Below, in pieces: positions 18,824 through 43,367 of a stretch of 43,802 nucleotides of DNA; the stretch's first letter is position 1, and every line of letters starts with the position of its first letter. Under the pieces are notes generated by a model. That model saw only the letters and a list, made by a program, of their open reading frames with translations. It made no database searches and was not told the DNA's origin. This DNA is from Alphaproteobacteria bacterium (GTDB lineage Bacteria; Pseudomonadota; Alphaproteobacteria; Bin95). Position numbers and translations under genes: made by a program. The stretch is from positions 1 through 43,802 of the forward strand of contig JAJECZ010000212.1 of assembly GCA_022821735.1 (NCBI GenBank), written 5' to 3'.

Positions 18824-19741
18824 ATGATGGACCGGATAACGGGAAAGCTCCGCAACCTTGGGGTTGTGGGCGTGACGGCAATGGCATTCCTCGCAGCGTT
18901 GATGCCGACGGAAGCTTTCGCGGCATGCACCGGCCAGTCCTATAGCCAAAGCTATTGTCTCGAGGGCCGGCGCAGCAATCCCAGCATCTTCCAGGATGCC
19001 TACTGGCGCGCGAAGAACATCTGCCGGGGCAACATGAAGGTCGAGATCAGCTTCTACGACAGAAGTTCCGGCGGCAGCCAGGGTTCCAAGGAATTCACCC
19101 TCGCCTACAACGAACAGAGGAGCGACCACACCGAGTCCGGCGTGGCCCATGTCCGATGCTGCGACAGCGGCACCGCCTCGCTGAGCATCGACGGCCGGAG
19201 CGTCAAGCTGTGCGACGTGACCGGGGACGAGTACTCAGACTGGCAGCAGGCAAACCCGGTCATCACCACCGAGGAATGCGCGGCAGAATGGGCGCTCAGC
19301 GACGCCTCGGAGCATTGCGGAGACCCGGATATCGAGGTCGTCGTCGAGAGCGGCGGCAGCAACCGTTGCCAAATCTCAGCGACCTGTACGCCGAACGGCC
19401 TCAGCTACAGCTTCACCAAAGGCGTCAGGTCGGCTCTGGACAATGTCTCGGACCTTTATATCTGCAAGGAAGGGTTCAGCCATTCCGAGTGCGATTACAC
19501 CTGCGACGACCACTATTGCAGCAACGCCGACTGCATCGCGGAGTTCAACGAGAGCCCGGCTGCCGACAGCTGCCATAACCTGAGCACCTCGTTCACCGGG
19601 CCGGACAAATGCGACCTCACGGCGGACTGTCCGACACCGAACAACTGGTTCTACCACCTCACCCTCGACGATATCGATGTGGAGAACGTGGACAGGGTCT
19701 GCAATTACTACGGCACGCGCCTGAAGGTCGGAGGGTGCTGA
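18824..19741 (+). CDS. Cysteine-rich secreted or lipo-protein, long paralog (305 aa, 20 Cys)
   Basis: RBS aggtgaggag; signal peptide ending AFAAC; ends in ...LKVGGC. It shares the N-terminal pattern AAC-x10-12-CLE...NIC...(V/I)R.CC and a duplicated C-terminal C-x5-C-x22-25-C module with the 194-aa paralogs. GC content is lower than in its neighbours. Confidence 0.75.
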   Translation: MMDRITGKLRNLGVVGVTAMAFLAALMPTEAFAACTGQSYSQSYCLEGRRSNPSIFQDAYWRAKNICRGNMKVEISFYDRSSGGSQGSKEFTLAYNEQRSDHTESGVAHVRCCDSGTASLSIDGRSVKLCDVTGDEYSDWQQANPVITTEECAAEWALSDASEHCGDPDIEVVVESGGSNRCQISATCTPNGLSYSFTKGVRSALDNVSDLYICKEGFSHSECDYTCDDHYCSNADCIAEFNESPAADSCHNLSTSFTGPDKCDLTADCPTPNNWFYHLTLDDIDVENVDRVCNYYGTRLKVGGC

Positions 19742-19753
19742 CGGCAAGGAGAC

Positions 19754-21157
19754 ATGGTGCGAACCGCCTGTCTTTGCCTGATCCCGTTCCTATGCGCCGT
19801 CTGGTCGATATCGTACGCGCGTGCAGAGGAACCCGACAGGCCGGAGCGCCGTCCGGTCCCTCTCAGGCTTGAAGACGCAGTCGGGCTGGCACTCGCTGAC
19901 AGTCGCGCCGCCATCGCCGCCCGACTGGGGCGACAGGAGCAAAAGCTCTCGCTGGAGAGGGCCGAGGAACGCTACGACCCCTCGGCCAGCCTGCGCCTGG
20001 GCACGACCGCGCAGAGCCGTGGGGACGAGACAGCATATGTCGCCCTCGGACCGAGCCTGCGGATCCGGACCGGCGGCACTTTCGCACTCGCCTTGCGCAA
20101 GCCGCTGGCCGGAGAGCGCGACCGGGAGACGAGCACGACACTCACCTTTCAACAGCCGTTATTGAAGGGGTTTGGGGCCGATCTGGACACCGGGCCGCTG
20201 CGCCGCGCGCGTCTCGATGAACGCATCGCCGCACGCGCCTTCCGGGATGCGGCATCCGCCATCGTCGACTCGGTGGTCTCTGCCTACCGCGGAGTGCTGA
20301 GGGCGGAACGGAGACTCGTCATCGCGCGCGAGGCGCTGGAACGCGCACAGCGGCAGCTCGGGATCAACCGGACGCTGGTGGAAGGGGGCCGGATGGCGCC
20401 GCAGGACCTGGTGCAGACCGAGGCCGACATCGCCAACAAGGAATATGCCCTGATCGATGCGAAGAACCGTCTGGAAACCGCCACGTCCACCCTTGTCGAC
20501 ACGCTCGATCTCGAAGAGGGCGTGCGCATTGAGGTGCAGGACGAACCGCCTGTCGAGCCGGAGCGGCCGGACCTGGAGGAAAGCCTTGAGACGGCGTTTG
20601 CACGCCGGACGGACTGGCTCAGTGCCGAGATCGGCATGGAACTGGCGCGCATGGGGCTCAGGACAGCGGAGAACAACATGCTGCCGGACCTCACACTGAG
20701 CGCGGAGGCAGCCCATGGCAGCGGGCAAGACCGCACGGACTGGAGCGGCGGGCTGAACCTGACCGTGCCGCTCCAGAACGACGAACCGAGGCGGACGCTG
20801 ACGCGCGCGCGCAACAGCCTCCGACGGGCGGAGATGGCGATGGCCGAGACGCGGCAATCGATCCGCATCGAGGTGCTCGGGACGGTGCATGATGTGGCGG
20901 TGGCGCTGCGCCAGATCGACCTCTCCCGCCAGGCACAGGTGCTCGCAGCGCGCAAGCTCGATATCGAGCGCCGCAAATTGCAGCAGGGCCTTTCCACCGC
21001 CTTCCAGATATCCCGCTTTGAAGATGACCTTGTAGCCACGCAGAACCGAGAACTCGAAGCGGTGGCGCGTTACCGGGACTCACTGTCCAGGCTCGATCGA
21101 ACGCTTGGCACCACGCTCGACCGATGGGGTGTATCGGTAGAACAGGTGGGTCGGTGA
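19754..21157 (+). CDS. TolC-family outer-membrane efflux protein (exporter 1)
   Basis: 467 aa with a signal peptide and two OEP repeats (..LEDAVGLALADSR...; ..LQQGLSTAFQISRFEDDLVATQNRE..). It starts 12 nt after the Cys-rich gene. Confidence 0.9.
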   Translation: MVRTACLCLIPFLCAVWSISYARAEEPDRPERRPVPLRLEDAVGLALADSRAAIAARLGRQEQKLSLERAEERYDPSASLRLGTTAQSRGDETAYVALGPSLRIRTGGTFALALRKPLAGERDRETSTTLTFQQPLLKGFGADLDTGPLRRARLDERIAARAFRDAASAIVDSVVSAYRGVLRAERRLVIAREALERAQRQLGINRTLVEGGRMAPQDLVQTEADIANKEYALIDAKNRLETATSTLVDTLDLEEGVRIEVQDEPPVEPERPDLEESLETAFARRTDWLSAEIGMELARMGLRTAENNMLPDLTLSAEAAHGSGQDRTDWSGGLNLTVPLQNDEPRRTLTRARNSLRRAEMAMAETRQSIRIEVLGTVHDVAVALRQIDLSRQAQVLAARKLDIERRKLQQGLSTAFQISRFEDDLVATQNRELEAVARYRDSLSRLDRTLGTTLDRWGVSVEQVGR

Positions 21158-22899
21158 CCGACCCCGATATCCACCGGGAAGTGCTCGACAATCTCGAGGA
21201 CGGTGTACTTGTCGTCGGCATGGGCGGGAAGGTCCGGACGCTGAACCCGGCCGCCGAGCGCATACTGGGCCTGAATGCCGACGAGGTCGCGGGGAAGGGT
21301 TTCGCCGAACTCTTCGTCACGCGGGAAGGCTTCGACGATTTCACGCAGATGGTGATCGACGCCACGGCAGAGCAGTCGATCGGCCGGCGCCGCGTGATTC
21401 AGGTGGACGGGGGCAACGAAACCCGGGCGCTCTCCATCGTCACCTCGTACCTCCGGCGCAAGAGGGCTTCGGAACCGATGGCGGTGATCGCGGTATTCAG
21501 CGATATCACCGAACTTCGCGATTTGCGGGAAACGGAGCTCAGGCTGGCCCGCGAAGCGGAGACCCAGCATCGCAGCCTTCAGGATGCATACCTTGAGATC
21601 GAGGACCGCAATGCCGCTCTGGCGCAGGCGCTGCGCAAGGTACGTCTGGTGCAGGGTCTGGGCGCGGTGCTCGCCGTTGCCCTGTTTCTCGGAGCCGGTT
21701 TCTGGACTTCGCGTTCGCTGGACCTTTTCGAGGGAGAGGGGATCGAGGCGTCCGCGGCCTCCGACGGCGCTGAACGCCGACTGACCGTGAAGCCGCGTCC
21801 CGTCTCCGACAGCATCACATTGAGAGGAACGCTGAAGCCGTGGCGGATCATACCGGTGCGCAGTCCCGTCGATGGCACCGTCGAGTCCGCCTACTACCGG
21901 ATCGGACAGAAGGTTGTGGAAGGCGAAACACTGCTGAAACTGGATATCAGCCGCGCCAGGCTCGACCATAGCTCGGCCAGCCGCCGCCATGCCGAGGCGC
22001 TCAAGAGGCTGAGGGACCTGGAGGACTGGGAGAACAGTCCGACGATGACCAAGGCCCGGCGGAACTTCATCAGGGCGCGGCTCGACCTGGAAAGCCTGCG
22101 CACGAAGATCAACAGGAGCCGGTTCCTGTTCGAAGAAGGGCTGATTCCGGTATCCGAGCACGAGGATGCGGAGCGGGAGTTCAAGGGACAGGAACTGGAT
22201 TTCGCAGCTGCCGAGGAAGAACTGGAAGCCACGCGTTTGGAAGGCAACGAGGAACGGTTGAATGACGCGCGGCTTGGCCTTGAAGCAGCGCGTATGGAGT
22301 TGCGGGCTACCGAAGCGGCACTCAAGTACGACGAGGTGCACGCCCCGGTATCGGGTGTCGTGCTGGCGCCGCAGCGCGCGGGCCAGGAGATGGTTCCCGG
22401 CAGATCGCTGAAGGCCGGAGGGCAAGTCCTGGAAATCGGCGACTTCTCGCGCATGGCCGTCACGACACAGGTGGACGAGGCGGATGTCGCCAAGCTCCGG
22501 GTGGGCCAGAAAGTCACCGTCAGGGGCAACGCCTTTCATGGGCTCGCGCTCAAGGGAAAGGTCACGCATGTCTCCTCGCAAGCGGACCCCAAGTCGCGCA
22601 GCATCCCGAAGTTCGACGCAAGGGTCACGCTCGATGCGGTGGATCCGGACGAGGCGGCGCAACTCCGCACCGGCATGTCGGCCCGGCTTACGATCGTCAC
22701 CTATGAGAACCCGACGGCCATGCTGGTGCCGATCGACGCGGTGCGCAGCCGGGGCGGCGAGCACCGTCTGCTGGTCATCGATCCCGAGACCGGCGAGGCT
22801 GAGGTCCGCGAGGTCGAGATCGGCCCGACGACACGGACCTCCGTCGAGATCCGGGCCGGCCTCAGGGCGGGCGAAACCATCCTGCTGCCGGGACGATGA
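21154..22899 (+). CDS. Membrane-fusion (HlyD/MacA-type periplasmic adaptor) protein with an N-terminal cytoplasmic PAS domain (exporter 1)
   Basis: The GTG at 21154 overlaps the OMF stop (GTGA). The PAS-like region is LDNLEDGVLVVGMGGKVRTLNPAAERILGL...IAVFSDITELRDLRETELRL. It is followed by a coiled coil, a TM segment (GLGAVLAVALFLGAGFW), then lipoyl/coiled-coil/beta-barrel adaptor motifs (..VRSPVDGTV..; ..VHAPVSGVV..; ..MLVPIDAV..). Confidence 0.85.
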   Translation: MTDPDIHREVLDNLEDGVLVVGMGGKVRTLNPAAERILGLNADEVAGKGFAELFVTREGFDDFTQMVIDATAEQSIGRRRVIQVDGGNETRALSIVTSYLRRKRASEPMAVIAVFSDITELRDLRETELRLAREAETQHRSLQDAYLEIEDRNAALAQALRKVRLVQGLGAVLAVALFLGAGFWTSRSLDLFEGEGIEASAASDGAERRLTVKPRPVSDSITLRGTLKPWRIIPVRSPVDGTVESAYYRIGQKVVEGETLLKLDISRARLDHSSASRRHAEALKRLRDLEDWENSPTMTKARRNFIRARLDLESLRTKINRSRFLFEEGLIPVSEHEDAEREFKGQELDFAAAEEELEATRLEGNEERLNDARLGLEAARMELRATEAALKYDEVHAPVSGVVLAPQRAGQEMVPGRSLKAGGQVLEIGDFSRMAVTTQVDEADVAKLRVGQKVTVRGNAFHGLALKGKVTHVSSQADPKSRSIPKFDARVTLDAVDPDEAAQLRTGMSARLTIVTYENPTAMLVPIDAVRSRGGEHRLLVIDPETGEAEVREVEIGPTTRTSVEIRAGLRAGETILLPGR

Positions 22900-22912
22900 G
22901 TGGAGGGCCGCC

Positions 22913-23272
22913 ATGGGAAAACTCAATTTCGCCAACCAGCCCGTCTGGACCGGCGACAATCTCGCCATCATGCCGGGCATTCATTCGGATTTGGGCGATC
23001 TCAGCTACCTCGACGCTCCGCTCAACTCAAAAACTGACCATGCCGCGCCGATCGGCAGCAAGGCGGCCGGGGCCGCGAGCAGGGACACATGGTCGCCGGG
23101 CACCCTCGATGCCCTTCAGCGCCTGGAGGCCGATCATATCATCGCACGGGCGAAGGGCGGGACCGACCATGTCGGCAACCTCCAGCTCCTCGGCGGACAC
23201 CGCAACCGCGTGAAGGGAGACCGGGGCATGGTAGAGCTGCGCCCGAAACTCCGACTGCCAAGAGCGTCCTGA
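22913..23272 (+). pseudogene. Collapsed DNA-methyltransferase/HNH remnant inserted inside the exporter-1 operon
   Basis: The N-terminus resembles N6/N4 methylases (..VWTGDNLAIMPGI.SDLGDLSYLDAPLNS), but DPPF/Y has degraded to DAPL. The C-terminus resembles an HNH module (EADHIIARAKGGTDHVGNLQLLGGHRNRVKGDRG), but the CxxC cysteines are lost. Only 119 aa remain. Confidence 0.6.
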
Positions 23273-23286
23273 GCGCCAGGAAAGAG

Positions 23287-23967
23287 ATGCTGGAGCTTTC
23301 CGATGTCCGCAAGACGTTCCGGCGGGGGCCGGTCGAGGTAAAGGTCCTGAGGGGAGTCGACCTCCGCGTGGAGGCGGGCGACCTCATCTCGATCATGGGG
23401 CCGTCCGGCAGCGGCAAGTCCACGCTCATGAACATACTGGGCCTGCTGGGGCGCCAGACAAGCGGCATCTACCGGTTGAACGGCCGCGACGTCTCGACCA
23501 TGGACGACCGCGAACTCTCGGCGTTCCGCAACCGGCATATCGGTTTCGTGTTCCAGTCGTTCAATTTGCTGGGGCATCTGACGGCGCTGGAGAACGCGGC
23601 CCTGCCGCTTGTCTATCGCGGCCTCGGACGGCGGGACGTGCGCCGGCGCGCGCAAGGCATCCTGGAGAAGGTCGGCATGGGCGACCGGCTGGATCACAGG
23701 CCTGACCAGCTGTCGGGCGGCCAGAAGCAGCGGGTGGCGATTGCACGGGCGCTCGTGGGCGAGCCGGGAGTGGTACTGGCCGACGAACCGACCGGAGCGC
23801 TCGACTCCGACACGGCCGACGAGGTGATGCGGCTCCTGGTCCGGCTCAACCGGGATGAGGGTGTCGCGGTGGTCATCATCACGCACGCTCCTTCGGTATC
23901 CCGGCAATGCTGCCGGCAGACCCTGATCCGGGACGGCGCATTGCTGGAAGACGGCGACACGGCATGA
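23287..23967 (+). CDS. ABC transporter ATP-binding protein, MacB/LolD type (exporter 1)
   Basis: Walker A (GPSGSGKST), Q-loop, signature (LSGGQKQRVAIARAL) and Walker B (VLADEPTGALD). Confidence 0.95.
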   Translation: MLELSDVRKTFRRGPVEVKVLRGVDLRVEAGDLISIMGPSGSGKSTLMNILGLLGRQTSGIYRLNGRDVSTMDDRELSAFRNRHIGFVFQSFNLLGHLTALENAALPLVYRGLGRRDVRRRAQGILEKVGMGDRLDHRPDQLSGGQKQRVAIARALVGEPGVVLADEPTGALDSDTADEVMRLLVRLNRDEGVAVVIITHAPSVSRQCCRQTLIRDGALLEDGDTA

Positions 23968-25163
23968 GACACACCAGTCCCGCACTCATGGACAGCCTGC
24001 GCGAGGCCTTGCGGAGCCTCTTGCGGGCCCGGCTGCGCACCGTGCTCGGCCTCATCGGCATCGCCATCGGCATCGCTTCGGTGATCGCCATGGTCTCGAT
24101 AGGCGAGGTCGCCACCGCCGAGGCCCGCAAACAATTCGAGGCCCTCGGCACCGATATCGTCACAGTCAAGACGGCGAAGGACTACAGGGGCCCCGGGATT
24201 GCCTTGGAGGCCGCGCTGTCGCTGACGGACTCGCTGTCCGCCATCTCCGCGGCATCGCCGACCATTCTTGGCGGAACCAACTTCGTTCATGCCGGCCGGC
24301 GCGTGGGCACCGGCTCCGTCAAGGGGGTCAGAGCGTCCTATGCGGACCTCGTGAAGCTCGAAATCGCGGAGGGGCGGTTCGTGTCGGACCTCGACGCCGG
24401 AAGCCTGTGGTGCGTGGTCGGCGCGAACGTTGCCGCAGCCATTCGCCGGGCCGGAACGCTCGACCCACTAAGCGCCGAGCTTGAGGTTGACGGACGCTTC
24501 TACCGGGTCGCCGGCGTGCTGCGAAACCGTGAGGAAACCCATGGCCTTCCCTTCGAAGTGGACGCAGACAAATCCGTGTTCGTCCCGGCTGTCACGGCCT
24601 GGCGCGCCACGCCGAATCCGGAGGTCGGAACGATCATCGCCCGCGCCGCGCCCGGCATCCACCATGAAGATGCGGTGCGCGCGATCAAGACCTGGTTCAA
24701 TGAGCGGCAGCCGGAACTCAAGCTGGAGGTAAGAAGCGCCAAGCAGCTGATCGCACAGATGGAAAACCAGCTGGGCCTGATGGCCATGCTGTTGGGTGCG
24801 GTCGGCAGCATCAGCCTCGTCGTCGGCGGTATCGGTGTCATGAACATCATGCTGATTTCGGTCGCGGAACGTCGGCGCGAAATCGGTGTCCGCCGGGCGC
24901 TCGGCGCCAGCCGGATCGACATAAGGCGTCAATTCCTGGTCGAGTCGGTCATTCTGACGCTCGTCGGCGGCAGTTTCGGCTTTGTCATCGGCAGCGTCGC
25001 CACCTGGGGCATCTGCGAGTTCACAGACTGGGACTTCTTCGTTTCACCGCTCTCGGTGGTCGTCGGGCTCGTCATCTCGTCGGCCGTGGGTATCTTCTTC
25101 GGCATCCAGCCCGCCTACCAGGCCTCCCGTCTCGATCCCATCGTGGCATTGCAGGGAGAATGA
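23964..25163 (+). CDS. ABC transporter permease, MacB/FtsX type with a large periplasmic domain (exporter 1)
   Basis: The ATG at 23964 overlaps the ATPase stop (ATGA). It has TM1, a ~220-aa periplasmic domain, then an FtsX 3-TM bundle (..GGIGVMNIMLISVAERRREIGVRRALGA..; C-terminal ..PAYQASRLDPIVALQGE). Confidence 0.9.
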   Translation: MRHTSPALMDSLREALRSLLRARLRTVLGLIGIAIGIASVIAMVSIGEVATAEARKQFEALGTDIVTVKTAKDYRGPGIALEAALSLTDSLSAISAASPTILGGTNFVHAGRRVGTGSVKGVRASYADLVKLEIAEGRFVSDLDAGSLWCVVGANVAAAIRRAGTLDPLSAELEVDGRFYRVAGVLRNREETHGLPFEVDADKSVFVPAVTAWRATPNPEVGTIIARAAPGIHHEDAVRAIKTWFNERQPELKLEVRSAKQLIAQMENQLGLMAMLLGAVGSISLVVGGIGVMNIMLISVAERRREIGVRRALGASRIDIRRQFLVESVILTLVGGSFGFVIGSVATWGICEFTDWDFFVSPLSVVVGLVISSAVGIFFGIQPAYQASRLDPIVALQGE

Positions 25164-26077: not shown

Positions 26078-29000
26078 CTAGAAATGGGCTTTGGCGAGAG
26101 CAACAGCATCGAGTCCGATCTGCGCCCCGATGAGCCGTCCCGGGATGTCGTCCGCCGGCGGGTGGATGCCGCCCCATATGCGCGACAGGCTGCACTGGTC
26201 GGCGGCGTCGCGATAGGTCGCCCATTGCAGCACCATGTCCACTGATGGCCCACGCTCGAAGACCAGGAACCCGTTCGCCGGGATCCGGAACTCACTCATG
26301 CCGCCGGGAAAGAACGGGTCGCCGGTAAGCGCCGTCAGCACCTCCGCCGCAGCCCGAGAATAAGTGGAATGACCCGAGACATAGCCCGCGAAGGGCGGGG
26401 TGACGAACGTGGGCCGCTGGTAGGGCCACCAGTGTTCCGCGAGAATCCAGCCGACACCGGCCGCGTCGGTCGCCGGGTCGGCTACGTGGTCGGGCCCGCG
26501 CCAGGCCCGTATCTTGATCTTGCCCGCATGCGCACCGTCCTCGCCCGCGAGAGGGTCGTCCGGGCCGACCAGCTCGATCAGGCCGGCCGTTAACGGGATG
26601 CCGTCGGCGGACCATGAAGGAAGCGCGGGATCGCTGGACTGTCCCTGGTCCGCCATGAACCTGATTGCCGAGATCGGCCGGACATAGTCATACCAACCCT
26701 TGACCCCCCATGAAGCGATGGCGGCGTCGTGCATCGCTCCGCCCAGGGCGAAGTATGTCTTCACGTCCCATTCGAGCGGATCGAGAACGGGCCCCTCCCC
26801 CCCGAGCCGCCTGACCAGCTTCTCGTGGTCGCTGACCGCATTCAGGATCGCGTACCAGTGGCCGGGCGGGGTCTCGGAGTCGGGTCCGTCGGCCCAGAAC
26901 TCGGCGAGCGCGCGCGCATAGTCGCCGCGCGGCACGACCTGGGGCACGTAGGGCTCGCCCGTGGCGGGATTGACCCGGTGACCCGGACCGTGCGGGTTCC
27001 CGTCGTAGAAGGAAGGATAATCCTCGACCCTGCGCGGCAGAGCGGAGATGTTGCCGATGCCCGAAGGCGCGATGTCCATCAGCACGCCGTCCGCAGGCGA
27101 AAGCTCGGACGACCACCGGGCAACCAGCGAGAAGCCCCACCTGTAGTGTCCGGACAGGGAATCTCTCGAGAATGGCGGCGGGCCGGGATCGTGGTAGACG
27201 TACCAGTCGGCCCCGTCCCTGCGATAGACTGAAAGGTCTTTCCCTGACAGCGCGAAGGGCAGGACCCGGCCCCACTCGGGAGTAACGAAGACGGAAATGT
27301 TGTCCGCTGCGAATCCCGCCTGGTCCACGAAGCTCGCCAGATGGAGGGGTTGCCAGCGGTCGGGATCCGCGAGGTCCGGATTGCCCGGACGCGACGGCTT
27401 CAGCTTCCTGTTGACAGGCTCGTAGTGGAGGCTTGCGTAGTTGTTCGCCTCGTTGGAGCCGTCCTCAAACCCCCGGGCGATGTAGAGCGCGCCGATGCAG
27501 GCGCCCAACGCCGCCGCGGGCCCGCTGTTGCCGGCGTCGTATCCAAGCGCTGCCATGAGCGTATCGGCGTTGCGCAGGGTTGCGGACGCCCCCGGCGAAT
27601 GCCGGAAGCGGTGCCGGATGAGGCGCCACGCAGCATGGCTGATGGCTTCCCGTCGCGCGGCAGGGATGCCATCGGCAGACGGAACCGGCGTCGGCTCGCA
27701 GACGGGGTCGGGGTCGCCGAACAGGTAGGGCCTCGCCGTTCCGGAATACGAGGCCCAGGCGTCGTACATGGCGGCGGACAGATGAAACAGGTTTCGGGCA
27801 TGGACCGTCGGCCGCGAGAGATCGTCGCGGATCGCCTGCAACAGTACCTCGATCCAGCGCCGCGCGACCGAGATACCGGGGTCCGACAGTGCCGGCCCCG
27901 GCAGGAAGTTGGCAAAGATCGTCGCGTCGTTCGCCGGCATGACGAATGTCGTGCGGGGCGAGCGATCGTCGGCAAATGTCCCGCCGCCCTCGCTGCTCCA
28001 GTGGCTGAAGCGATAGTTGTCTGCAGGTGCGCCGGCCTCGACGGAGACCGTTTCCCCTTCGGCATGGAGACCGCCTTCAGCGCCGCCCGCAACGCTGAGC
28101 ACGGAGCCGCGGTGCGGCGGCTGACGGATGCTGAGACGACGGTCGGCCAGGATGTTCTCCAGCCGGCTGACCTCACCGCCCGGGCCGGGCCACATCACCT
28201 CCACCGCGGATACCGTTTGCTCCCGGCCGAGGCCGAAGTGCAACGTCGCAGGCCCCTGGGACAGGTAGCCGTCGCCAAACCGAACCTCTTGCGTCTGGCT
28301 GCCTGACGGAGTGTGGACGACCACGCGGGCGCCGATCGCCTCCGGGTTGGCATGCCGGCCGACGAGGTCGAGGGCGAGCCAGTGATTGCCGGTCTCGAAG
28401 GCGTTGCGATAGACGGTCGGAGCGGCGCCCAGATTGGCGATGAAGATGTCGACCCTGCCATCGCCATCGTAGTCCGTGCAGACGACGCCCCGGCCCTGGC
28501 CGGTGTGATCGATACCGAGTTCGCTTCCGCGTTCCGAGAAGGTGCCGTCTCCGTTCGACATGAACAGGCGCGACCTGTCCTCGAGAAATTCGAGCACGCT
28601 CTCCCTGTCTTCAGCTTCGCTGGGATCGTTGTCCACATTCCACCCGTTGGTATGAAAGAGATCGAGGTGGCCGTCATTGTCGAAATCCGCCCAGCAGGCG
28701 CCCCAGCCCCAGCCGCCCTCGCGAACGCCGGCGGCCTCGGTTGCATCCTCGAACCTGCCCGTCCCGTCGATGTTCCGATAGAGGCGGTTCCCGGTGGTTC
28801 CCTGGCCGCCGCTCTTGTCCGGGTCGAAGATGCTGGTCACGAACCAGTCGATATCGCCGTCCCGGTCGTAGTCGCCGGCCGAGGCGCCCATGCCGTTCTC
28901 GTCGGTCAGTACTGTCTTCCCCGTTTCGACGAAGGCGATACCGCGGTCGTTGCGCAGAATCTGGCTCGTCCCGAAGTCGCCGGCCAGCAGCAGATCGGGA

Positions 29001-29770
29001 TCGCCGTCTCCATCGATATCGGCGAATGTCGGCGTGAAGGCGTAGTGGAACGGCGTGCCCGACCTGCGGGTTTCCCGGGCATGCATGAGGATTTCGCTCA
29101 CGTCCCGATAGCGTCCCCTGCCGTCGTTTCGCCAGAGAAGGTGCGAGGGAGGGCGCACCCGGTTCGGAATTCTGCTCCAATGTGAAAAGAACAGGTCCAG
29201 GTCGCCGTCGCTGTCGTAGTCCGCCGCCGCCATGGAGTAGGCCGCCTGGTTGTGCCGGATACCGGAAATGCCGGGCGCCGTCGCGAACCGCCCTGTTCCG
29301 TCGTTGCGGAAGACCTGGACGCCGGTCTGCTGAAGCGACACGAAATCCTTCCGGCCGTCGCGGTCGAGATCGATGAAATACCCCGCCCAATCCATGTCCG
29401 CAGGTTCGATGCCGCGATTGCCGTCACGCTCCACGAAGCCGGTGCCGTCATAGCTGAACAGACGGCCCGTCTTGCCGACTCCATGGGCGACGTAGAGATC
29501 GAGCTTGCCGTCATTGTCGATGTCGGAGAGCGACAGGCCGGCAGCCTCGGGTTGTGCGCCGGCTTCCTCCAACAGTCTCCCCGAGCCGGGCACCACCGGG
29601 TAGTCGAGGCCGATCGCGGCCGAGACCTCCACGAAGCCGCGCCCTCGATATACCGCGTCTTCAGCCGACACCTCGTTCCAACCCGCAACGAACAGAAGGG
29701 CAAGGAAGAAGCGACACGACAGGCGTGCGCCACGGCGCGGACCCGCGTTTCCCTGTCGTGCCGCCTTCAT
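26078..29770 (-). CDS. Secreted multidomain protein: FG-GAP/VCBS repeats plus UnbV/ASPIC, an InlB-B-repeat-like domain, and a C-terminal vanadium-haloperoxidase/PAP2-like domain
   Basis: Signal peptide (..FFLALLFVAGWNEVSA). Many D.D.DGD.D FG-GAP repeats. ASPIC motif (GDGYLSQGPATLHFGLG....V..VEVMWPG). Repeat domain (..YRFSHWSSEGGGTF...TTFVMPANDATIFANF). PAP2/haloperoxidase motifs (YDYVRPISAIRF; YVSGHSTYS; SRIWGGIHPPADD). Confidence 0.85.
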   Translation of the reverse strand: MKAARQGNAGPRRGARLSCRFFLALLFVAGWNEVSAEDAVYRGRGFVEVSAAIGLDYPVVPGSGRLLEEAGAQPEAAGLSLSDIDNDGKLDLYVAHGVGKTGRLFSYDGTGFVERDGNRGIEPADMDWAGYFIDLDRDGRKDFVSLQQTGVQVFRNDGTGRFATAPGISGIRHNQAAYSMAAADYDSDGDLDLFFSHWSRIPNRVRPPSHLLWRNDGRGRYRDVSEILMHARETRRSGTPFHYAFTPTFADIDGDGDPDLLLAGDFGTSQILRNDRGIAFVETGKTVLTDENGMGASAGDYDRDGDIDWFVTSIFDPDKSGGQGTTGNRLYRNIDGTGRFEDATEAAGVREGGWGWGACWADFDNDGHLDLFHTNGWNVDNDPSEAEDRESVLEFLEDRSRLFMSNGDGTFSERGSELGIDHTGQGRGVVCTDYDGDGRVDIFIANLGAAPTVYRNAFETGNHWLALDLVGRHANPEAIGARVVVHTPSGSQTQEVRFGDGYLSQGPATLHFGLGREQTVSAVEVMWPGPGGEVSRLENILADRRLSIRQPPHRGSVLSVAGGAEGGLHAEGETVSVEAGAPADNYRFSHWSSEGGGTFADDRSPRTTFVMPANDATIFANFLPGPALSDPGISVARRWIEVLLQAIRDDLSRPTVHARNLFHLSAAMYDAWASYSGTARPYLFGDPDPVCEPTPVPSADGIPAARREAISHAAWRLIRHRFRHSPGASATLRNADTLMAALGYDAGNSGPAAALGACIGALYIARGFEDGSNEANNYASLHYEPVNRKLKPSRPGNPDLADPDRWQPLHLASFVDQAGFAADNISVFVTPEWGRVLPFALSGKDLSVYRRDGADWYVYHDPGPPPFSRDSLSGHYRWGFSLVARWSSELSPADGVLMDIAPSGIGNISALPRRVEDYPSFYDGNPHGPGHRVNPATGEPYVPQVVPRGDYARALAEFWADGPDSETPPGHWYAILNAVSDHEKLVRRLGGEGPVLDPLEWDVKTYFALGGAMHDAAIASWGVKGWYDYVRPISAIRFMADQGQSSDPALPSWSADGIPLTAGLIELVGPDDPLAGEDGAHAGKIKIRAWRGPDHVADPATDAAGVGWILAEHWWPYQRPTFVTPPFAGYVSGHSTYSRAAAEVLTALTGDPFFPGGMSEFRIPANGFLVFERGPSVDMVLQWATYRDAADQCSLSRIWGGIHPPADDIPGRLIGAQIGLDAVALAKAHF

Positions 29771-29835: not shown

Positions 29836-30069
29836 TCAGGCGGCCGATTTGACCGGCTCGCGGAACTGTTCCTCCTCGAAGCCTCTGGGGCTCGCATAGC
29901 CAAGAGCCGAGTGCAGGCGCCTCTTGCCATGGCTGTCGATGAAGCGCGGCAGGTGTTCCGGGACGTCTTTGGAGCCGTTACCGGTCTTGGGGACAGACCC
30001 CTCGATCTTCAGCGTCTTCATGAAGCTCTCCATCAGAGCGTTGTCGTTGAGCTGGCTGCGTCGTCCCAT
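29836..30069 (-). pseudogene. IS3-family transposase C-terminal fragment
   Basis: ..NDNALMESFMKTLKIE....LPRFIDSHGKRRLHSALGYASPRGFEEE matches the conserved IS3 OrfB C-terminus (YDNA..ESF.KTLK.E...LP.FIE..YN.KRLHSALGY.SP..FE). The upstream part is frame-broken. Confidence 0.75.
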
Positions 30070-30305
30070 CGAGCCGGTCGGTCTCTGGGAGTCCGGTTAG
30101 GGATGGATCGCGCGCCCTTCGGTCGGCGTTCTTCGGCTATGGAGCGGTCTTGGGCCCGGTGATGACGGGCATGGGCCCGCTTCTCGGCTACCGTCCTTGC
30201 GGCCGAGCTCCCCTGAGAACTCGAGTTCCGGGACCTGCTCGCCGACCAGGCCTTCGAAGGCCGCGATCCAGGAGACCGCTCCAGCGCCAAACTAATATTC
30301 ACAAA

Positions 30306-31972: not shown

Positions 31973-32557
31973 ATGAACACGCGCATCGCATTTCGAACGG
32001 TAATCGCCGTTCTGTCGGTCATGTTCCTCACGGCTGCGGCATCGGACGCCTGGGCGGCGTGCGGATCGAGCCAGCGGATGAGCCACCGCGATTCCTTCTG
32101 TCTCCAGGCGTCGTGGGACAACAACAGCTGGCCGCACACGACGTCGTATGAGATGAGAAACATCTGCTCTTCCTGGGGCAAGGTCGTCGCGAAAGTCGAC
32201 AGAAAAGACGATTCGGACCTCACATTGCACCTGGTCAACGACTCCACGAGAACCGGCAGCGGGTGGTACAGGATCAGGTGGATTTACTGTTGCAAGGACA
32301 TAAGCGATCTCTGCAACAGGTCGGACATGCAGACAAACGCGAGCTGTCGCGAAGGCTTCGAGGACAACAACGAACTCGACGACTGCACGCTCGACGCGGG
32401 GTCCGAAGGAGCGAGGATTCAGGGCGAGCAGTGCGTATACAGCGCAAGCTGCCTCGACAATGCGTCGCAACCGAACGAGACGACGTTCATCGTCTTCCGA
32501 CCGGACGTGGACGATTTGAAGAATTGCAACGGCGTCTTGAAACAGGATTCCTGCTGA
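31973..32557 (+). CDS. Cysteine-rich secreted or lipo-protein, paralog B (194 aa, 12 Cys)
   Basis: MNTRIAFRTVIAVLSVMFLTAAASDAWAAC...NCNGVLKQDSC. It is colinear with paralog A and all 12 Cys positions are conserved. Confidence 0.8.
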   Translation: MNTRIAFRTVIAVLSVMFLTAAASDAWAACGSSQRMSHRDSFCLQASWDNNSWPHTTSYEMRNICSSWGKVVAKVDRKDDSDLTLHLVNDSTRTGSGWYRIRWIYCCKDISDLCNRSDMQTNASCREGFEDNNELDDCTLDAGSEGARIQGEQCVYSASCLDNASQPNETTFIVFRPDVDDLKNCNGVLKQDSC

Positions 32558-33121
32558 TCCTGCCGGCAGAAAGAGGGTGCCTTGCTCTTCCGCGATTGAA
32601 TGATCGCCGAACTCGCGGGCGTGGCGTCCGGCACTGCCGAGCAGCACATGCGCTTGGGCGAAGCCCGACCGGGCCGGACGGAGGTGCTGCAACATACGGT
32701 CGAGAGGCTGGCCGGCAGCTGTCAAGGCGACGACATGAGCGCGAGGTCCGACAGGCCCTTCCCGCCCGTCTCGTGGTCTAGGCGGAAGATCGCCTCCTGT
32801 TCCGGCCCCTGCCCGGGGGCGCCAGACGGCAATCCCGCGTTCCGGCGTGCTCCGCACGCCGGGGGCCAGATCCGGATGACCGCGAATCGGCTCCCGGAAC
32901 ACGCCGGTCGGACGGATGCCGGGACCGGCCCCCGGGGACAGGCGCATTCGGCCTCGACGGTATCGGCCGGCGGGTTCCAGTGCCCCGACCGCGCGGTGCG
33001 CTCTTCCCTTTGCAAAGAAACGGGCCCGGGCAGACCGGCAGACCTGGGTGAGCCGCCGTTACACATCGACATGTTTCAGGCGGCGCGCCGATCTTCGTCC
33101 GCGGAGTGCCAAATCCACGCT

Positions 33122-33829
33122 TCAGGAAAGGGCGGCAAGCGCTGCCTCCAGAGTCTCGCGGCAGTCCATGACCGACCGAAAGCCGCTCATGTCGACAACC
33201 GACCGGCATGAGGGCTGCAAGGCAGCGATAACGAACCTGCCGCCCGATTGCTGACATGTCTTCGCGCTGACGAGGAGGCCGCGCAGTCCGGCGCTGTTGA
33301 CATAGCTCATCCGGCTGCAATCCAGCGCCACACGGGCGTTGCCGGCCGCGACGACGGTGGAAACCCGGGCCTCCAGCAGCGGAGCGCCGCTGCCATCCAG
33401 CCGGCCGCTCACCGACAGGACGACCGCAACCTCCTCGCGGCGCTCCTCGATCGTGGTCTCCCCGCCGTCTTCCGGCATCGACTTAACGCCGCCCTCCCCG
33501 GAAGCGGCAAGGGCTGCCTCGACGGTCTCGTGGTAGTCGAGAACCGAGAGCAGACCACTCACGTTCACGACCTCCCGGCACTCCGGCCTGAGCGCAGCAA
33601 TGATGAAGGTGCCGCCCTCGTTCCCGCACGATTTAGCGCCGACCAGGAGCGCGCGCAGACCGGCACTGCTGATATAGGATATTCGCCGGCCGTCCAGAAT
33701 CACACGGTTGTCGCCCCGCCTCACGATAGCGGAAACCCGGGCTTCCAGAACCTGCGCGCCGGCCGCGTTCAGCGGCCCCTCCGGGGACACGACGACTTTC
33801 CGTTCCAGGCTCCGCTCCAGGATTCTCAT
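33122..33829 (-). CDS. Tandem-STAS domain protein (two anti-sigma-factor-antagonist-like domains)
   Basis: Two internal repeats each carry a SpoIIAA-like core: ..VILDGRRISYISSAGLRALLVGAK...FIIAAL.P.CREVVNVSGL.. and ..VALDCSRMSYVNSAGLRGLLVSAK...FVIAALQPSCRSVVDMSGF... The ATG at 33844 is an alternative start. Confidence 0.8.
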   Translation of the reverse strand: MRILERSLERKVVVSPEGPLNAAGAQVLEARVSAIVRRGDNRVILDGRRISYISSAGLRALLVGAKSCGNEGGTFIIAALRPECREVVNVSGLLSVLDYHETVEAALAASGEGGVKSMPEDGGETTIEERREEVAVVLSVSGRLDGSGAPLLEARVSTVVAAGNARVALDCSRMSYVNSAGLRGLLVSAKTCQQSGGRFVIAALQPSCRSVVDMSGFRSVMDCRETLEAALAALS

Positions 33830-33840
33830 GGCGCCGCCTT

Positions 33841-34605
33841 TCATCGGTCACGCCGATTGCCGTCCGCACGCGCCGCGGCGACGAGTTCCTTCATCTGGAT
33901 GTCGTCGATTGCGCCCGGGACCAGGGAATCCCCGATCACGAATGCCGGCGTGCCCGAAATCCCCAGCGCCCCGGCGAGCCGCCTCGTCTCCTCGAGATAG
34001 GCTGCGGTCGCAGGATCGCCCATGTCGCGGCGGAGCCGCTCCACGTCGAGCCCGACCGCGGCGGCGAGCCCGAAAATCCCCTCTTCGGTCAGCTTCTCCC
34101 CGGTACCCATCATGGCGACATGGAAATCGTGATAGAGCCCTTGCCGGTCAGCCGCCATTGCGGCAACTGCGGCCAAGTCCGAGACCGGACCCAGGATGGG
34201 AAACTCCTTCCAGACCACGCGGACCCGGTCGTCGGATTCCAGCAACGCCATCACGGCCGGAAACGCCCGCTTGCAGTAGCTGCATCTGTAGTCGAAGAAC
34301 TCGACCACGGTGACGTCGCCCTCGGGGTTGCCGGAGACCGGCGACAGGGGATGCGCCCGCAGGGCCCGGTCGTTTTCCGCGATCGCCGCCCGGGCGCGGC
34401 TCAGGCGCTCCTCCTCGCGCCTCTGGCGAAGAATCTGCATCGCCTCTTCCAGGACCTCGGGGTTCTCCAGCAGATACTCCCTGACGATCTCTCCGACCGC
34501 CTTCCTGTCGAGATTCGGGTCCGGCGCCGACTGCGCCCGGCTCTCCGGGGCCGGCATCATGATGGAAACGGCGATCACGGCCGCCAGCATCGTCATCATT
34601 CGCAT
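33841..34605 (-). CDS. DsbA-family periplasmic thiol:disulfide oxidoreductase
   Basis: Signal peptide, thioredoxin-fold active site (VVEFFDYRCSYCKR) and the DsbA-like cis-Pro region (ISGTPAFVIG). Confidence 0.9.
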   Translation of the reverse strand: MRMMTMLAAVIAVSIMMPAPESRAQSAPDPNLDRKAVGEIVREYLLENPEVLEEAMQILRQRREEERLSRARAAIAENDRALRAHPLSPVSGNPEGDVTVVEFFDYRCSYCKRAFPAVMALLESDDRVRVVWKEFPILGPVSDLAAVAAMAADRQGLYHDFHVAMMGTGEKLTEEGIFGLAAAVGLDVERLRRDMGDPATAAYLEETRRLAGALGISGTPAFVIGDSLVPGAIDDIQMKELVAAARADGNRRDR

Positions 34606-34785
34606 GGGTCATGTTCCTTGTCTGTGTATGCGTGCGGAGGACTCATCGATCACCCGTAAACCACGGCGCGGACGATCGTCTGTCGAGTTGATTTGCGGGC
34701 CGGATTGGCGCAATTTTCGCTGGACGAAATCCCCGGCCAATGGCGTGGCGACCATATACGGACGGAAAGATCGGAGGGCGCCGGC

Positions 34786-35202
34786 GTGACCTCTTGCAAG
34801 CTCTCGGGAGAAGACGCCGTCGCCTTTGACGCTCCCCTTCTGCTCTATGACGGCGAATGCCCGTTCTGCAGCTTCTACGTCGCGAAATCGGAATTCGAAA
34901 CGCGCATCGGCAAGCCCCTGCGTCTCGTCGACGGCAGGCAGGCCCCCGACCTCGTCGAGCGCATGCGGCGCGACGGGTACGACCTCGAACAGGGCATGAT
35001 CCTCGCCGTCGAGGGACGGCTCTATCACGGCGCAGCGGCGATGACCGCACTCGCGACCATGAGCACCGGCGCCGGCCGCTTCAACAGGGTCATGCGCCGG
35101 GTCGCGTCGAGCCGTGCGCGGGTCCGCCGGCTCTATCCCTGGCTGCGCAGGCTGCGGCGCGCAGCTCTGCTCGCAAAGGGCGCGCCCCGCTTCCGGCGCT
35201 GA
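34786..35202 (+). CDS. DCC-family (DUF393) thiol-disulfide oxidoreductase
   Basis: DxxCxxC motif near the N-terminus (LLLYDGECPFCSFYV). The GTG at 34786, preceded by GGAGG, gives the usual ~138-aa size. The ORF-track start at 34693 is less likely. Confidence 0.8.
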   Translation: MTSCKLSGEDAVAFDAPLLLYDGECPFCSFYVAKSEFETRIGKPLRLVDGRQAPDLVERMRRDGYDLEQGMILAVEGRLYHGAAAMTALATMSTGAGRFNRVMRRVASSRARVRRLYPWLRRLRRAALLAKGAPRFRR

Positions 35203-38051: not shown

Positions 38052-38062
38052 AACGCCGCCGT

Positions 38063-38743
<681 letters not shown>

Positions 38744-41943: not shown

Positions 41944-42413
41944 TCTGGATCGCCGCCGGCGGACCTGGCATCCGCGCCCGCCTCACCCGGCCGACGCTGC
42001 CGCCCAGCTCGGGGGCCGGAGCGCGGATACCGCCGCCCTCGCTGGCGTCAGGCGCCCCTGCAATGCCCCAGCCTCTTTCTCAAGGGCACGCCGTGCGCCG
42101 GTTCGAAAATCGCGGCCTTCCGCTCTACCAACACGCCGGTGTGGTCCTGAGTTCGCCGTCGCAGCTGCGCGCACCGCTCCTGCCCGCCACGCCGGCTCCC
42201 AATGAGGAACCGTACCAAACGGCTGTCCTTGCGACGACATCTCCTGCAACCCCGTCACTCATGTCGCGTCTCCCGTGTCGGGCGTCCCCTCGGTTCCGGC
42301 TGTCGCTGCCAGTGGTGCAAGCTGCCGCAGAAATGCAGCCGGAAGCCGCCCCGCCGTTCAAAAGGCACGCGTGGCCAATTCGTTCAGTTAAAGTGTTGGG
42401 GAACGGACGGCCT

Positions 42414-42437
42414 TGTCGCCCCCCAATTGAGGGAGAT
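42414..42437 (+). repeat. IS-end-like repeat copy
   Basis: tgtcgccccccaattgagggagat. It shares about 70 nt including flanks (..gttcag..aaagt..ccttgtc.cccccaattgagggagattcccaag.aatg) with the copy at 43637. Confidence 0.6.
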
Positions 42438-42797
42438 TCCCAAGGAATGGCGGAAAACGCGCCTTCGCCCGGCGATATCGTACTGAAAGCCGTGATTGCC
42501 TCGAAATCGATGGTCCAACATCGGGGCCAAGTCCAGGTCTCTACGAAGGGAAATACAACGGTTCTCGTCGTATTCCTCTTCGATCCCTCCAGTGGCAATC
42601 CCGGCGACCATGAGCGCCGCAGCCTTGGGATTAGTCGGTCGTTTTTCTGCGCACGGTCCTACCGGTATAACGGGCTCCCAGCCGGCCATGGTAGAGCTTG
42701 CCACGACGTTACAGCGTGAGCCGTCTCTGGCGCTGAAGTCGAGAATCGAAGACCTAGCCAACCAAGAGGCGGCTGGGGCTTTTGTTTGGGGCCGAAA

Positions 42798-43367
42798 TCA
42801 GCAGGAATTCTTCTGTATTTGCTCATCATTGCACAGGACCAGTTTATCGACCTCGTAGCGAAAAACCACCTTCGTCGCATAGACCATCTCGCCGTCGACG
42901 TTAGGGCAAGTGGCGCTGTAGTGACAGCGTTCCCCGGAAATGCTGACGCCAGAGGAGCTGGAGTTCAGTTGGCAATCGTCGAGATCTTCATTTTCCTCAA
43001 ATCCCTCACGACTACTCGCATTTGTCCTCATGTCCGACTTGTTACAGAGATCGGACAGGTCAGAGAAACAGTGAATCCACCGGACGTTGGAGCGCGTCCT
43101 GCCGCGCCTCTTATTCCCGTCATTCAGGTGCCAAGTCTTGTCGCCTGTATCCTTCAAGTCGATTTTCGCGACAACCTTGCCCCAACCCGGACAAGGGTTT
43201 TGCACGCCGAACGGCGACGGGGAGGGCCATTGATTGTTGTCCCACCACGCCGACAGGCACTCTGCATTTCTGTGGCTGACCCGGTCGCTCGATCCGCAAG
43301 CTGCCCAGGCTTCGGAGCCCACAGCGGTCAGAAACAGAGCGATGATCGCGGCCAAAACATAACGCAT
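42798..43367 (-). CDS. Cysteine-rich secreted or lipo-protein, paralog C (189 aa, 10 Cys)
   Basis: RBS ggaggag; MRYVLAAIIALFLTAVGSEAWAAC...; ends ..IQKNSC. It is colinear with A and B, but two Cys positions are replaced (CC to CF; ESC/ASC to ASS). Confidence 0.75.
   Translation of the reverse strand: MRYVLAAIIALFLTAVGSEAWAACGSSDRVSHRNAECLSAWWDNNQWPSPSPFGVQNPCPGWGKVVAKIDLKDTGDKTWHLNDGNKRRGRTRSNVRWIHCFSDLSDLCNKSDMRTNASSREGFEENEDLDDCQLNSSSSGVSISGERCHYSATCPNVDGEMVYATKVVFRYEVDKLVLCNDEQIQKNSC

Follow-up and report, generated by a model that had tools for sequence, protein, structure and literature searches.

The systems closest to the one described here are MacB-type ATP-binding cassette (ABC) pumps that handle proteins. 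One of their substrates, STII of Escherichia coli, is 48 amino acids (aa) long. Its secretion requires Sec, DsbA, and MacAB-TolC, and its disulfides have to form in the periplasm before it can cross the outer membrane (PMC5985334). The secretion of dispersin and CexE relies on Aat pumps of the MacB type plus a dedicated modifying enzyme (PMC5985334, PMC7943197), and dispersin, at 10 kDa and 20 Å across, is the largest accepted protein substrate of a MacB-type pump and possibly marks an upper bound (PMC5985334). Here we describe a contig of 43,802 nucleotides (nt) from an alphaproteobacterium (JAJECZ010000212.1, assembly GCA_022821735.1; this whole stretch is called the window), in which two MacB-type pump operons lie on opposite strands, each beside a gene for a secreted, cysteine-rich (Cys-rich) protein. 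We consider it reasonably likely that the stretch from ~16.4 to 43.4 kb is a gene island and that it encodes a dedicated two-step, Sec-dependent, PAS-gated MacB-type secretion system for a disulfide-rich protein family. A first-pass annotation, made from the DNA letters, had already proposed a dedicated export system here; gene content and linkage support the proposal, and transport itself is predicted.

The linkage of the Cys-rich genes to the pump carries most of the argument. The first-pass annotation had suggested looking for enrichment of the Cys-rich family next to MacB-type pumps, and across genomes the two are strongly linked in both directions. This set of genes is found together on many unrelated contigs, so the arrangement is not a product of chance. 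Among 23 loci found through the Cys-rich family, 12 have homologous genes for the outer membrane factor (OMF), the PAS-fused adaptor, the ATPase, or the permease within 10 kb (loci are numbered L001 onwards). All three loci found only through the adaptor (L024-L026; adaptors 46-55% identical) have open reading frames (ORFs) matching the family profile beside the pump. The locus found only through the HTTM gene, a vitamin-K-carboxylase homologue discussed below, has the pump, two Cys-family ORFs, and DCC1, ScsC/DsbA, and FG-GAP/haloperoxidase-like genes (L029, 63% identity). Because L003 and L010 carry the pump and Cys-rich genes and nothing more, we regard these genes as the conserved core. 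Copies of the family are multiple per locus and dispersed, with up to five in L009. Compared with the window, the Cys-rich proteins of L001 and L013 are 35-40% identical, and the OMF, ATPase, and HTTM proteins 69-80%. Multiple copies, dispersal, fast divergence, and an N-terminal position on long proteins that are otherwise free of Cys fit cargo better than machinery. The loci are recorded as Alphaproteobacteria, Rhodobacterales, one complete Ca. Binatia chromosome, and one metagenome-assembled genome (MAG) of Aphanocapsa feldmannii, a sponge symbiont (PMC6506613). In L010, on a contig of this MAG (positions 10784-13267), a gene for an fn3-rich protein of >828 aa with a purple-acid-phosphatase N-terminal domain adjoins the Cys-rich gene and the pump.

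By the criteria of permease, nucleotide-binding domain (NBD), adaptor, and OMF, the pump is classed from its sequence as a MacB-type (type VII ABC) tripartite system. The domains that the first-pass annotation had named for confirmation are present in both operons according to Pfam (OEP, PAS with HlyD_D23/HlyD_3, ABC_tran, and MacB_PCD with FtsX). The permeases match MacB_PCD (2.7e-28 and 7e-30) and FtsX (1.2e-19 and 6.5e-20), PERM1 matches MacB 5lil at 2.4e-44, and permease hydropathy gives four hydrophobic segments in a 1 + 3 arrangement, with a large periplasmic core domain between transmembrane segments (TM) 1 and 2. As read in the translations, both ATPases keep intact Walker A, signature, and Walker B motifs (GPSGSGKST, LSGGQ(K/R)QR, LADEPTGALD), and the top NCBIfam model for ATP1 is MacB, at 3.1e-77 and under the equivalog cut-off. 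With the MacB model NF007826, whose cut-off is 966, the scores are 260 and 168 bits, the MacA model NF008606 gives 69 bits against 342, and the OMF match to TIGR01844 (6.7e-22) lies under the subfamily cut-off. The NBD and the transmembrane domain (TMD) are separate genes in both operons. Because no NCBIfam equivalog cut-off is reached and the NBD and TMD are split, the pump is best placed as a distinct subfamily and not as MacAB proper. Type I secretion of the HlyBD-TolC type was considered and rejected, given a MacB/FtsX-type permease in place of an ABC_membrane-type TMD, and Cys-rich proteins with N-terminal Sec-type signals and a conserved terminal Cys in place of Sec-independent cargo with a C-terminal secretion signal.

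The adaptor of the pump is fused to a PAS domain. It matches MacA by sequence (3.6e-13), and its structural model finds MacA as the best Foldseek match (9qgy_G, 1.5e-24; 5nik_D, 1.7e-22). The AlphaFold2 model of PAS-MFP1, with a mean predicted local distance difference test (pLDDT) score of 82, has a continuous helix at residues 119-185 and a long alpha-hairpin (helices 266-390), and a TM is predicted at residues 165-186 in PAS-MFP1 and 172-190 in PAS-MFP2. As modeled, PAS-MFP1 is a cytoplasmic PAS domain followed by one unbroken helix of 67 residues through a single TM, and then by a MacA-like periplasmic body. The PAS domain is strongly conserved, and its C-terminal end reads FSDITELRELRETELR. 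The succession of the adaptor PAS, FSDITELRELRETELR, and the TM-spanning helix is reminiscent of the layout of sensor kinases. The family of PAS-fused adaptors is small and uniform (208 clusters, all ~580-600 aa). In a limited library, no paper was found that joins "PAS domain", "membrane fusion protein", and MacB, which is weak evidence of absence. The PLSDB plasmids hold no PAS-fused adaptor and no Cys-family member, merely generic HlyD periplasmic parts at ≤30% identity.

All four Cys-rich proteins of the window are members of one family, and the three of ~190 aa are 46-70% identical. The "extra substrate cassettes" that had been noticed between the pumps are the tandem genes Cys194a and Cys194b, which lie within a 1384-bp tandem duplication (window 30305-33075, 79-86% DNA identity) that copied the upstream region too. 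Cys189 is 46-51% identical to this pair by blastp and scores 280 bits with the family hidden Markov model (HMM); its mature form has 18.8 kDa and 10 Cys. Cys305 (305 aa) has one N-subdomain and two C-subdomains and reaches 46.6 bits with the family HMM in three domain matches, and its mature form has 29.8 kDa and 20 Cys. On this sequence evidence, it is classed as a divergent member of the family and no close paralogue of the ~190-aa proteins. Mature ~190-aa members range from 18.7 to 18.9 kDa with 10-12 Cys, and the isoelectric point (pI) of the proteins is 4.5-5.6. The Sec-type signal peptides seen in the first pass stand, with an AxA site that fits signal peptidase I in 14 of 14 aligned sequences. 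In the family alignment, the mature N-terminus is conserved as (A/S/L/D)-C-G-S-S-Q-R and the final residue is a conserved Cys. A lipoprotein/Lol route was rejected: the sequences depart from the lipobox [LVI][ASTVI][GAS]C, with mostly W, F, H, D, E, or Q at position -3 and L or D at position -1 in two. Cys189 is without exactly two of the 12 conserved Cys, the equivalents of C107 (CC to CF) and C125 (SC to SS) of Cys194a; this joint loss suggests that the two form a disulfide pair.

No Cys-rich protein has a Pfam or NCBIfam match. The AlphaFold2 model of Cys194a is confident and consists of two subdomains (pLDDT 83.6 overall, ~90 over the mature part), for which Foldseek found no neighbor at E≤1e-3 in PDB or BFVD. 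A word-indexed search of 5.8 billion proteins gave 11 family clusters, and a profile search of 1.84 billion representatives gave 414. These proteins form a new family, rare but real. Family members have a median length of 199 aa, most of them without a passenger, and fusions extend up to 855 aa. In the long members, the Cys-rich domain is always N-terminal and holds all 12 Cys, the remainder of 300-650 aa is Cys-free, and a Calx-beta domain is present in nine of the ten that were scanned. Sequons (N-x-S/T) number five in Cys194a and six in Cys194b, compared to 1.6 and 2.0 expected by shuffling, a significant excess that might hint at glycosylation, with no enrichment in the other two window members, Cys305 and Cys189. 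Upstream of the four Cys-rich genes no common regulatory motif was found, and only the tandem pair aligns.

The two operons are related and old. Identities between operons 1 and 2 by blastp are 77% for the ATPases, 58% for the permeases, 47% for the adaptors, and 45% for the OMFs, close to the three quarters (ATPases) and half (OMFs) that the first-pass annotation had estimated by eye. At the DNA level, the ATPase genes form an inverted repeat of 669 nt that is 77% complementary (23287-23955 vs. 38075-38743). The view that these are old paralogues is upheld, as each OMF has closer relatives elsewhere (63-78% and 56-71%) than its partner in the window (45%). A lineage like operon 1 (L001, L007, L013, L024, L026) has OMFs 63-78% identical to OMF1 and 49-51% to OMF2, and elsewhere occurs with DsbA, STAS, HTTM, and DCC1 genes. 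A lineage like operon 2 (L003, L010, L012, L025) has OMFs 56-71% identical to OMF2 and 42-45% to OMF1, and elsewhere has no recurrent accessory genes. A third group (L002, L011, L014) has the FG-GAP/haloperoxidase-like gene and OMFs 45-51% identical to OMF1 and 51-55% to OMF2, figures that exclude L011, which gave no OMF match. Sequence comparison therefore places the two operons as two old pump lineages maintained together, each beside its own cargo gene, and not as a recent duplication.

The features of the island are collected in Table 1. A six-frame ORF list with codon-position GC, together with Pfam scans, bears out the earlier gene map with its coordinates and start/stop overlaps, except for one point: insertion sequence (IS) debris had been claimed in the ~850-nt spacer at 41944-42797, and the four ORFs scanned there have no Pfam match and no transposase signature. 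In operon 1, Cys305 and OMF1 are separated by 12 nt (from the ORF coordinates), OMF1 and PAS-MFP1 share a GTGA overlap (21154-21157), and ATP1 and PERM1 an ATGA overlap (23964-23967); in operon 2, OMF2 and PAS-MFP2 share an ATGA overlap (40531-40528). The gap between adaptor and ATPase in operon 1 (22900-23286) is 387 nt, compared to 10-25 nt at the equivalent junction in other loci. It is overlapped by an ORF (22484-23272) with an HNH match (E 4.6e-4, residues 212-236) that by eye is also methylase-like. The gap is an insertion within operon 1 with an HNH-like gene remnant, and it may have disturbed co-translation of the operon.

Table 1. Genes and gene remnants of the candidate secretion island, with positions in the window
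Feature	Position	Strand	Remarks
LuxR/GerE-type regulator, 416 aa	16410-17660	-	GerE helix-turn-helix at the C-terminus
Cys305, Cys-rich	18824-19741	+	Operon 1; no Pfam match
OMF1, TolC-like, lineage 1	19754-21157	+	OEP in two stretches, 6.5e-36
PAS-MFP1 adaptor	21154-22899	+	PAS + HlyD_D23/HlyD_3
ATP1, MacB/LolD-type ABC ATPase	23287-23967	+	ABC_tran 5.2e-33
PERM1, MacB-type permease	23964-25163	+	MacB_PCD + FtsX
FG-GAP/ASPIC propeller + vanadium-haloperoxidase/PAP2-like protein, 1230 aa, secreted	26078-29770	-	Pfam; with InlB B-repeat
Integrase (rve_3) fragment, IS debris	29836-30096	-	rve_3 2.6e-8; also called in L027
Cys194a	30589-31173	+	Family founder; mature form 18.9 kDa, 12 Cys
Cys194b	31973-32557	+	Tandem paralogue, 70% identical to Cys194a (blastp)
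Cytoplasmic double-STAS protein, anti-sigma-antagonist type	33122-33844	-	STAS x2; TIGR00377 1.7e-34
Periplasmic ScsC_N + DsbA-like thiol-disulfide oxidoreductase	33841-34605	-	CSYC motif; Pfam
DCC1-like thiol-disulfide oxidoreductase	34693-35202	+	DCC1-like 7.5e-11, residues 50-157; convergent with HTTM gene
HTTM + VKGC_lumenal_dom protein	36782-35217	-	Pfam; 54 nt downstream of PERM2
PERM2, MacB-type permease, lineage 2	38051-36837	-	MacB_PCD + FtsX
ATP2, ABC ATPase	38743-38063	-	ABC_tran 1.8e-33
PAS-MFP2 adaptor	40531-38759	-	PAS + HlyD_3/HlyD_D23
OMF2, TolC-like, lineage 2	41943-40528	-	OEP in two stretches, 3.3e-37
Cys189, Cys-rich	43367-42798	-	Operon 2; no Pfam match

Several genes between and beside the two operons recur in other loci. 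The first-pass annotation had the gene list right and had overlooked the recurrence of the DsbA/ScsC, double-STAS, DCC1, FG-GAP/haloperoxidase-like, and LuxR genes, along with the specific link to a VKGC clade. ScsC/DsbA-like homologues (58-67%) are found in L001, L007, L013, and L026 and are present also in L029, and double-STAS homologues occur in L001, L007, L013, and L026. The DCC1-like gene, whose true start is probably downstream of 34693, has counterparts paired with HTTM in L001, L013, L029, and L030. The C-terminal half of the 1230-aa protein matches a vanadium haloperoxidase (9l8x, 1.1e-11) with the K..RP, SGHS, and SRxxGGxH motifs kept, and homologues 59-70% identical to the protein are found in L001, L002, L011, L012, L014, and L029. 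LuxR-type homologues (46-48% identity) stand beside the cassette in L007 and L025, and the LuxR-type protein, a candidate regulator for the island, probably controls transcription.

The HTTM gene encodes a full-length homologue of vitamin-K-dependent gamma-carboxylase (HTTM PF05090, 5.3e-68; VKGC lumenal domain PF22777, 3.5e-34; both from Pfam), whose residues 9-450 can be aligned to human GGCX with an E value of 1.6e-39. Of the GGCX residues with a role in that enzyme, the catalytic K218 as well as H160 and N290 correspond to K172, H114, and N243, which are invariant in 19 bacterial homologues. The D263 position is taken by a histidine (His216) and the H404 position by a tyrosine, both throughout the 19 bacterial homologues aligned. 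Residue roles in GGCX have been described for K218, for N290, and for D263 as the acidic partner of K218, and among changes of D263 solely D263E retains partial activity (PMC13486548). The lumenal segment 374-418 is needed for carboxylation, and epoxidase-only homologues of giant viruses are without it (PMC13486548); the island protein does have this segment, with part of its sequence conserved (LP, GY..WT, SW.MM) and Tyr at the H404 position. Among the four Cys-rich proteins, Pfam finds no Gla domain or propeptide substrate, and the alignment of the family shows no invariant Glu. The residues kept and replaced throughout the 19 bacterial VKGC homologues suggest that these have a shared but altered chemistry. 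The HTTM clade of the island (≥63% identity) comprises ~33 full-length clusters, and the next homologues are at ≤45%. At least ten of its members are on the same contig as a PAS-adaptor match, and in another two the gene call is fused to ABC_tran or OEP. Because clade members share contigs with the PAS-adaptor or are fused in this way, the clade is taken, from sequence, as an accessory specific to the pump island. In Paracoccus isoporae (L030, FNAH01000003.1), the locus of a distant HTTM homologue (42%) has neither a MacB pump nor the Cys-rich family. There, the HTTM/VKGC + DCC1 pair has Peptidase_S8, ABC_membrane, and sigma-70 genes as neighbors, and so the enzyme pair also occurs in another context.

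The left 11.8 kb of the window is ordinary core genome (TRAP transporter, kdsD, lptC, lptB, rpoN, hpf, ptsN), with a canonical kdsD(SIS+CBS)-lptC-lptB-rpoN-hpf-ptsN cluster at 2632-8364. This core cluster has a GC content of 0.69-0.73, compared to 0.61-0.66 from ~11.9 kb onward, and the drop beside core genome therefore suggests that the secretion genes are an acquired island in a proteobacterial genome. Two ORFs in the left part of the window may be gene fragments: one of 191 aa with a TPP_enzyme_C domain alone (10112-10687, + strand), and one of 281 aa with several hydrophobic segments and no Pfam match, possibly a truncated transporter (15301-16146, - strand). Rfam and tRNA scans of the window returned nothing, and so no obvious riboswitch or integration site, and a promoter scan gave no promoter-like sites. 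Terminator-like sites number 14, compared to an expected 10.1 ± 3.5, and are uninformative.

From these components, we propose a mechanism in which the Cys-rich proteins would first leave the cytoplasm by Sec export and be cut by signal peptidase I, leaving an x-C-G-S-S-Q-R N-terminus. Oxidative folding of their 10-20 Cys would follow in the periplasm, probably aided by the ScsC/DsbA-like enzyme of the island. Where the gene is present, the VKGC homologue might then modify the Cys-rich proteins, with the DCC1-like protein as a redox partner, a step that is speculative. Finally, by homology with MacAB-TolC/STII and Aat/dispersin, the periplasmic domain of the split MacB-type ABC would capture these proteins, and they would leave via a MacA-like adaptor hexamer joined to a TolC-like duct. 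A possible target of the double-STAS protein is the ATPase, by analogy with MlaB, a STAS protein that acts on MlaF. DevBCA and MacAB are controlled through the cytoplasmic N-terminus of their adaptors, and that of DevB is needed for export (PMC5985334). Because PAS sits in this controlling position at the N-terminus of the island adaptor, export is probably gated by a cytoplasmic signal. The hosts are probably sponge symbionts, and the Cys-rich products probably have an extracellular role, with the sponge or its matrix as the target. Calx-beta is the signature domain of sponge aggregation factors and is reported to be enriched in the genomes of sponge symbionts (PMC9531527, PMC5400394). The window may come from an Ircinia sponge, as its sample label, KELL22-1, resembles the Ircinia study of Kelly et al. 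2022 (PMC9531527), which does not mention the system. A more ambitious version, in which a symbiosis-specific pathway is shared horizontally across phyla and its PAS-gated pump exports, or displays at the surface, disulfide-locked proteins that exceed every known MacB substrate by far and are carboxylated in the periplasm by the VKGC/DCC1 pair, seems to us distinctly unlikely.

A number of observations weigh against a dedicated protein export system. Eleven of the 23 Cys-anchored loci are "orphans" with no pump within 10 kb. Nine of these eleven are on contigs or in MAGs that have a PAS-adaptor or pump locus elsewhere, an assignment made partly from the presence of L012 and L021 on one contig and of L010 in the same MAG as L019, L022, and L023. 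The sequence data reached for two Rhodobacterales genomes showed no pump. Two loci, L001 and L007, keep Cys-rich genes beside degenerate pumps: the adaptor is missing, the permease is fragmented in L001 and absent in L007, and IS elements are near L001. Both retain Cys, DsbA, STAS, and DCC1 genes, and L001 also retains HTTM. All loci come from uncultured MAGs, and some of the claims across phyla rest on MAG binning, the pump-bearing contig of A. feldmannii (SRMO01000030.1) being 17.6 kb long; Pfam scans of flanking genes on the A. feldmannii contigs found housekeeping genes, none of them lineage-diagnostic. Size is a further difficulty, as the mature cargo of 18.7-29.8 kDa, with 5-6 disulfides in the ~190-aa forms, is ~2-3x dispersin, and fusions reach 855 aa. 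Lastly, the haloperoxidase-like and VKGC-like enzymes could indicate a non-protein substrate.

This last point leads to the rival that survives best, in which the pump exports some other substrate and the Cys-rich proteins, as co-regulated partners in the periplasm or outside the cell, take another route. That substrate could be a lipid, a small molecule (halogenated or derived from a quinone) that the VKGC-like and haloperoxidase-like enzymes make or handle, or a toxic compound derived from the host. We judge it unlikely. MacB-type pumps often move macrolides, pyoverdine, and glycolipids (PMC5985334), VKGC-like and haloperoxidase-like enzymes recur in the island, and the Cys-rich proteins are larger than the known protein substrates of MacB. 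However, the minimal loci L003 and L010 do without the enzymes, the linkage of the Cys-rich family is tighter than that of any enzyme, and no locus table includes non-ribosomal peptide synthetase (NRPS), polyketide synthase (PKS), or similar genes. A small-molecule cluster had been named in the first pass as one finding that would argue against protein export, and the cluster in the window contains no NRPS/PKS or other small-molecule pathway.

Very unlikely, in our view, is that the Cys-rich proteins are Sec-secreted, bacteriocin-like toxins and that the pump mainly protects the producer by clearing its envelope of them. Such a role has been proposed for the ABC transporter of lactococcin 972 and for the BceAB/MacB systems of peptide resistance. 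The ATPase does match TIGR03608, a model for putative lactococcin-972-type bacteriocin export ABC proteins, at 1.3e-55, but its 188 bits are under the cut-off of 254.85 and many ABC models outscore this one. While a multicopy, fast-evolving family of disulfide-rich, stable proteins that is horizontally shared by co-resident symbionts would suit toxins, the acidic pI (4.5-5.6) is unlike that of most membrane-active bacteriocins, no immunity-protein candidates were seen, and the Calx-beta fusions indicate adhesion or matrix binding. Even a toxin of this kind would still have the pump moving protein outward.

Remoter still is the idea that the Cys-rich domain is a part of the machine, a disulfide-locked N-terminal plug in the adaptor/OMF conduit that tethers Calx-beta passengers at the surface or, where there is no passenger, gates the pump. 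Type-1 adhesins such as LapA, in which an N-terminal retention module keeps the protein on the surface, offer a model for it. The invariably N-terminal position of the domain and the confinement of all 12 Cys of the long members to it, with a Cys-free rest of 300-650 aa, would agree with an anchor, as would a domain too big for easy passage through a TolC-like duct (size compared with PMC5985334). Nevertheless, most members (median 199 aa) have no passenger to tether, there are several copies per pump and many orphans, and the family diverges far faster than the pump parts into which it would have to fit. Hitch-hiking of functionally unrelated pump and Cys-rich genes on a mobile island is barely credible: IS/integrase debris and rearrangements in and around the loci and a varying gene order speak for it, but the linkage outlasts rearrangement, three pump lineages, and cross-phylum transfer, three independent anchors agree, and 12 of 23 loci compare with ~1-2% expected within 10 kb (a rough figure, from 1-3 pumps per 4-5 Mb and with loci that are not independent).

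If dedicated secretion of the Cys-rich family is correct, it has consequences beyond this contig. MacB-type pumps with genetically linked protein cargo are so far known only from Aat/Cex of enteric pathogens, and the island would bring this mode of secretion to two or more phyla of uncultured marine symbionts, with a sensor-fused adaptor and a larger apparent size limit. The Cys-rich family is likely to be active at the interface of bacterium and host. In addition, a VKGC clade embedded with candidate periplasmic protein substrates and an exporter provides a route to the function of bacterial homologues of the carboxylase, and, if the proposed modification is true, no earlier case of vitamin-K-type protein modification in bacteria would have had its protein substrates identified.

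With regard to that modification, human GGCX and the island protein share HTTM and lumenal domains, and the active side of the island protein would face the periplasm, where the Cys-rich proteins are expected to fold. The two differ in D263 (His in the island protein) and H404 (Tyr), in candidate substrates that have no Gla domain or propeptide, and in a DCC1-like partner in place of VKOR. The substrate of MloH is a polyketide-peptide intermediate and no protein (10.64898/2026.08.19.745780), unlike the candidate substrates of the island protein.

Compared with the described secretion systems, the island is like MacAB-TolC and STII in its permease with MacB_PCD and FtsX, its MacB/LolD-type ATPase, its MacA-like adaptor, its TolC-like duct, and a Sec-exported substrate with disulfides. 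It is unlike MacAB-TolC in the split of ATPase and permease, the PAS domain on the adaptor, the OMF gene within the operon, and the linked substrate genes, and its putative substrate has 19-30 kDa and 5-10 disulfides compared to two disulfides in STII. The cyanobacterial DevBCA-HgdD and PvdRT-OpmQ also combine a split or MacB-type ABC with an adaptor and a TolC-like OMF and act on a periplasmic or envelope substrate, and the PAS domain of the island adaptor occupies the position of the cytoplasmic N-terminus of DevB. Unlike the island, these two systems export glycolipid or pyoverdine, their adaptors are without a sensor domain, and no secreted-protein family is linked to them.

The Aat/Cex systems of enteroaggregative and enterotoxigenic E. 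coli (EAEC, ETEC) are likewise close, with a pump operon beside a Sec-dependent cargo, a membrane enzyme that modifies the cargo, and a conserved mature N-terminus (PMC7943197, PMC5985334). That enzyme is AatD in Aat and would be the VKGC homologue in a subset of the island loci; an AatD/Lnt-type acyltransferase or CN_hydrolase was found neither among the window genes scanned nor in the locus tables. The cargo of Aat/Cex has an N-terminal Gly, whereas the putative cargo of the island begins x-C-G-S-S-Q-R, is larger and rich in Cys, and bears no relation to it. Aat has no PAS adaptor, and the hosts are Enterobacterales in one case and uncultured marine bacteria in the other. The proposed system is of a known kind, a MacB-type tripartite pump with a dedicated Sec-dependent protein cargo, and its novelty lies in an adaptor fused to a sensor, in the family and fold of the cargo, in the accessory enzymes, in the range of hosts, and in the apparent size of the cargo.

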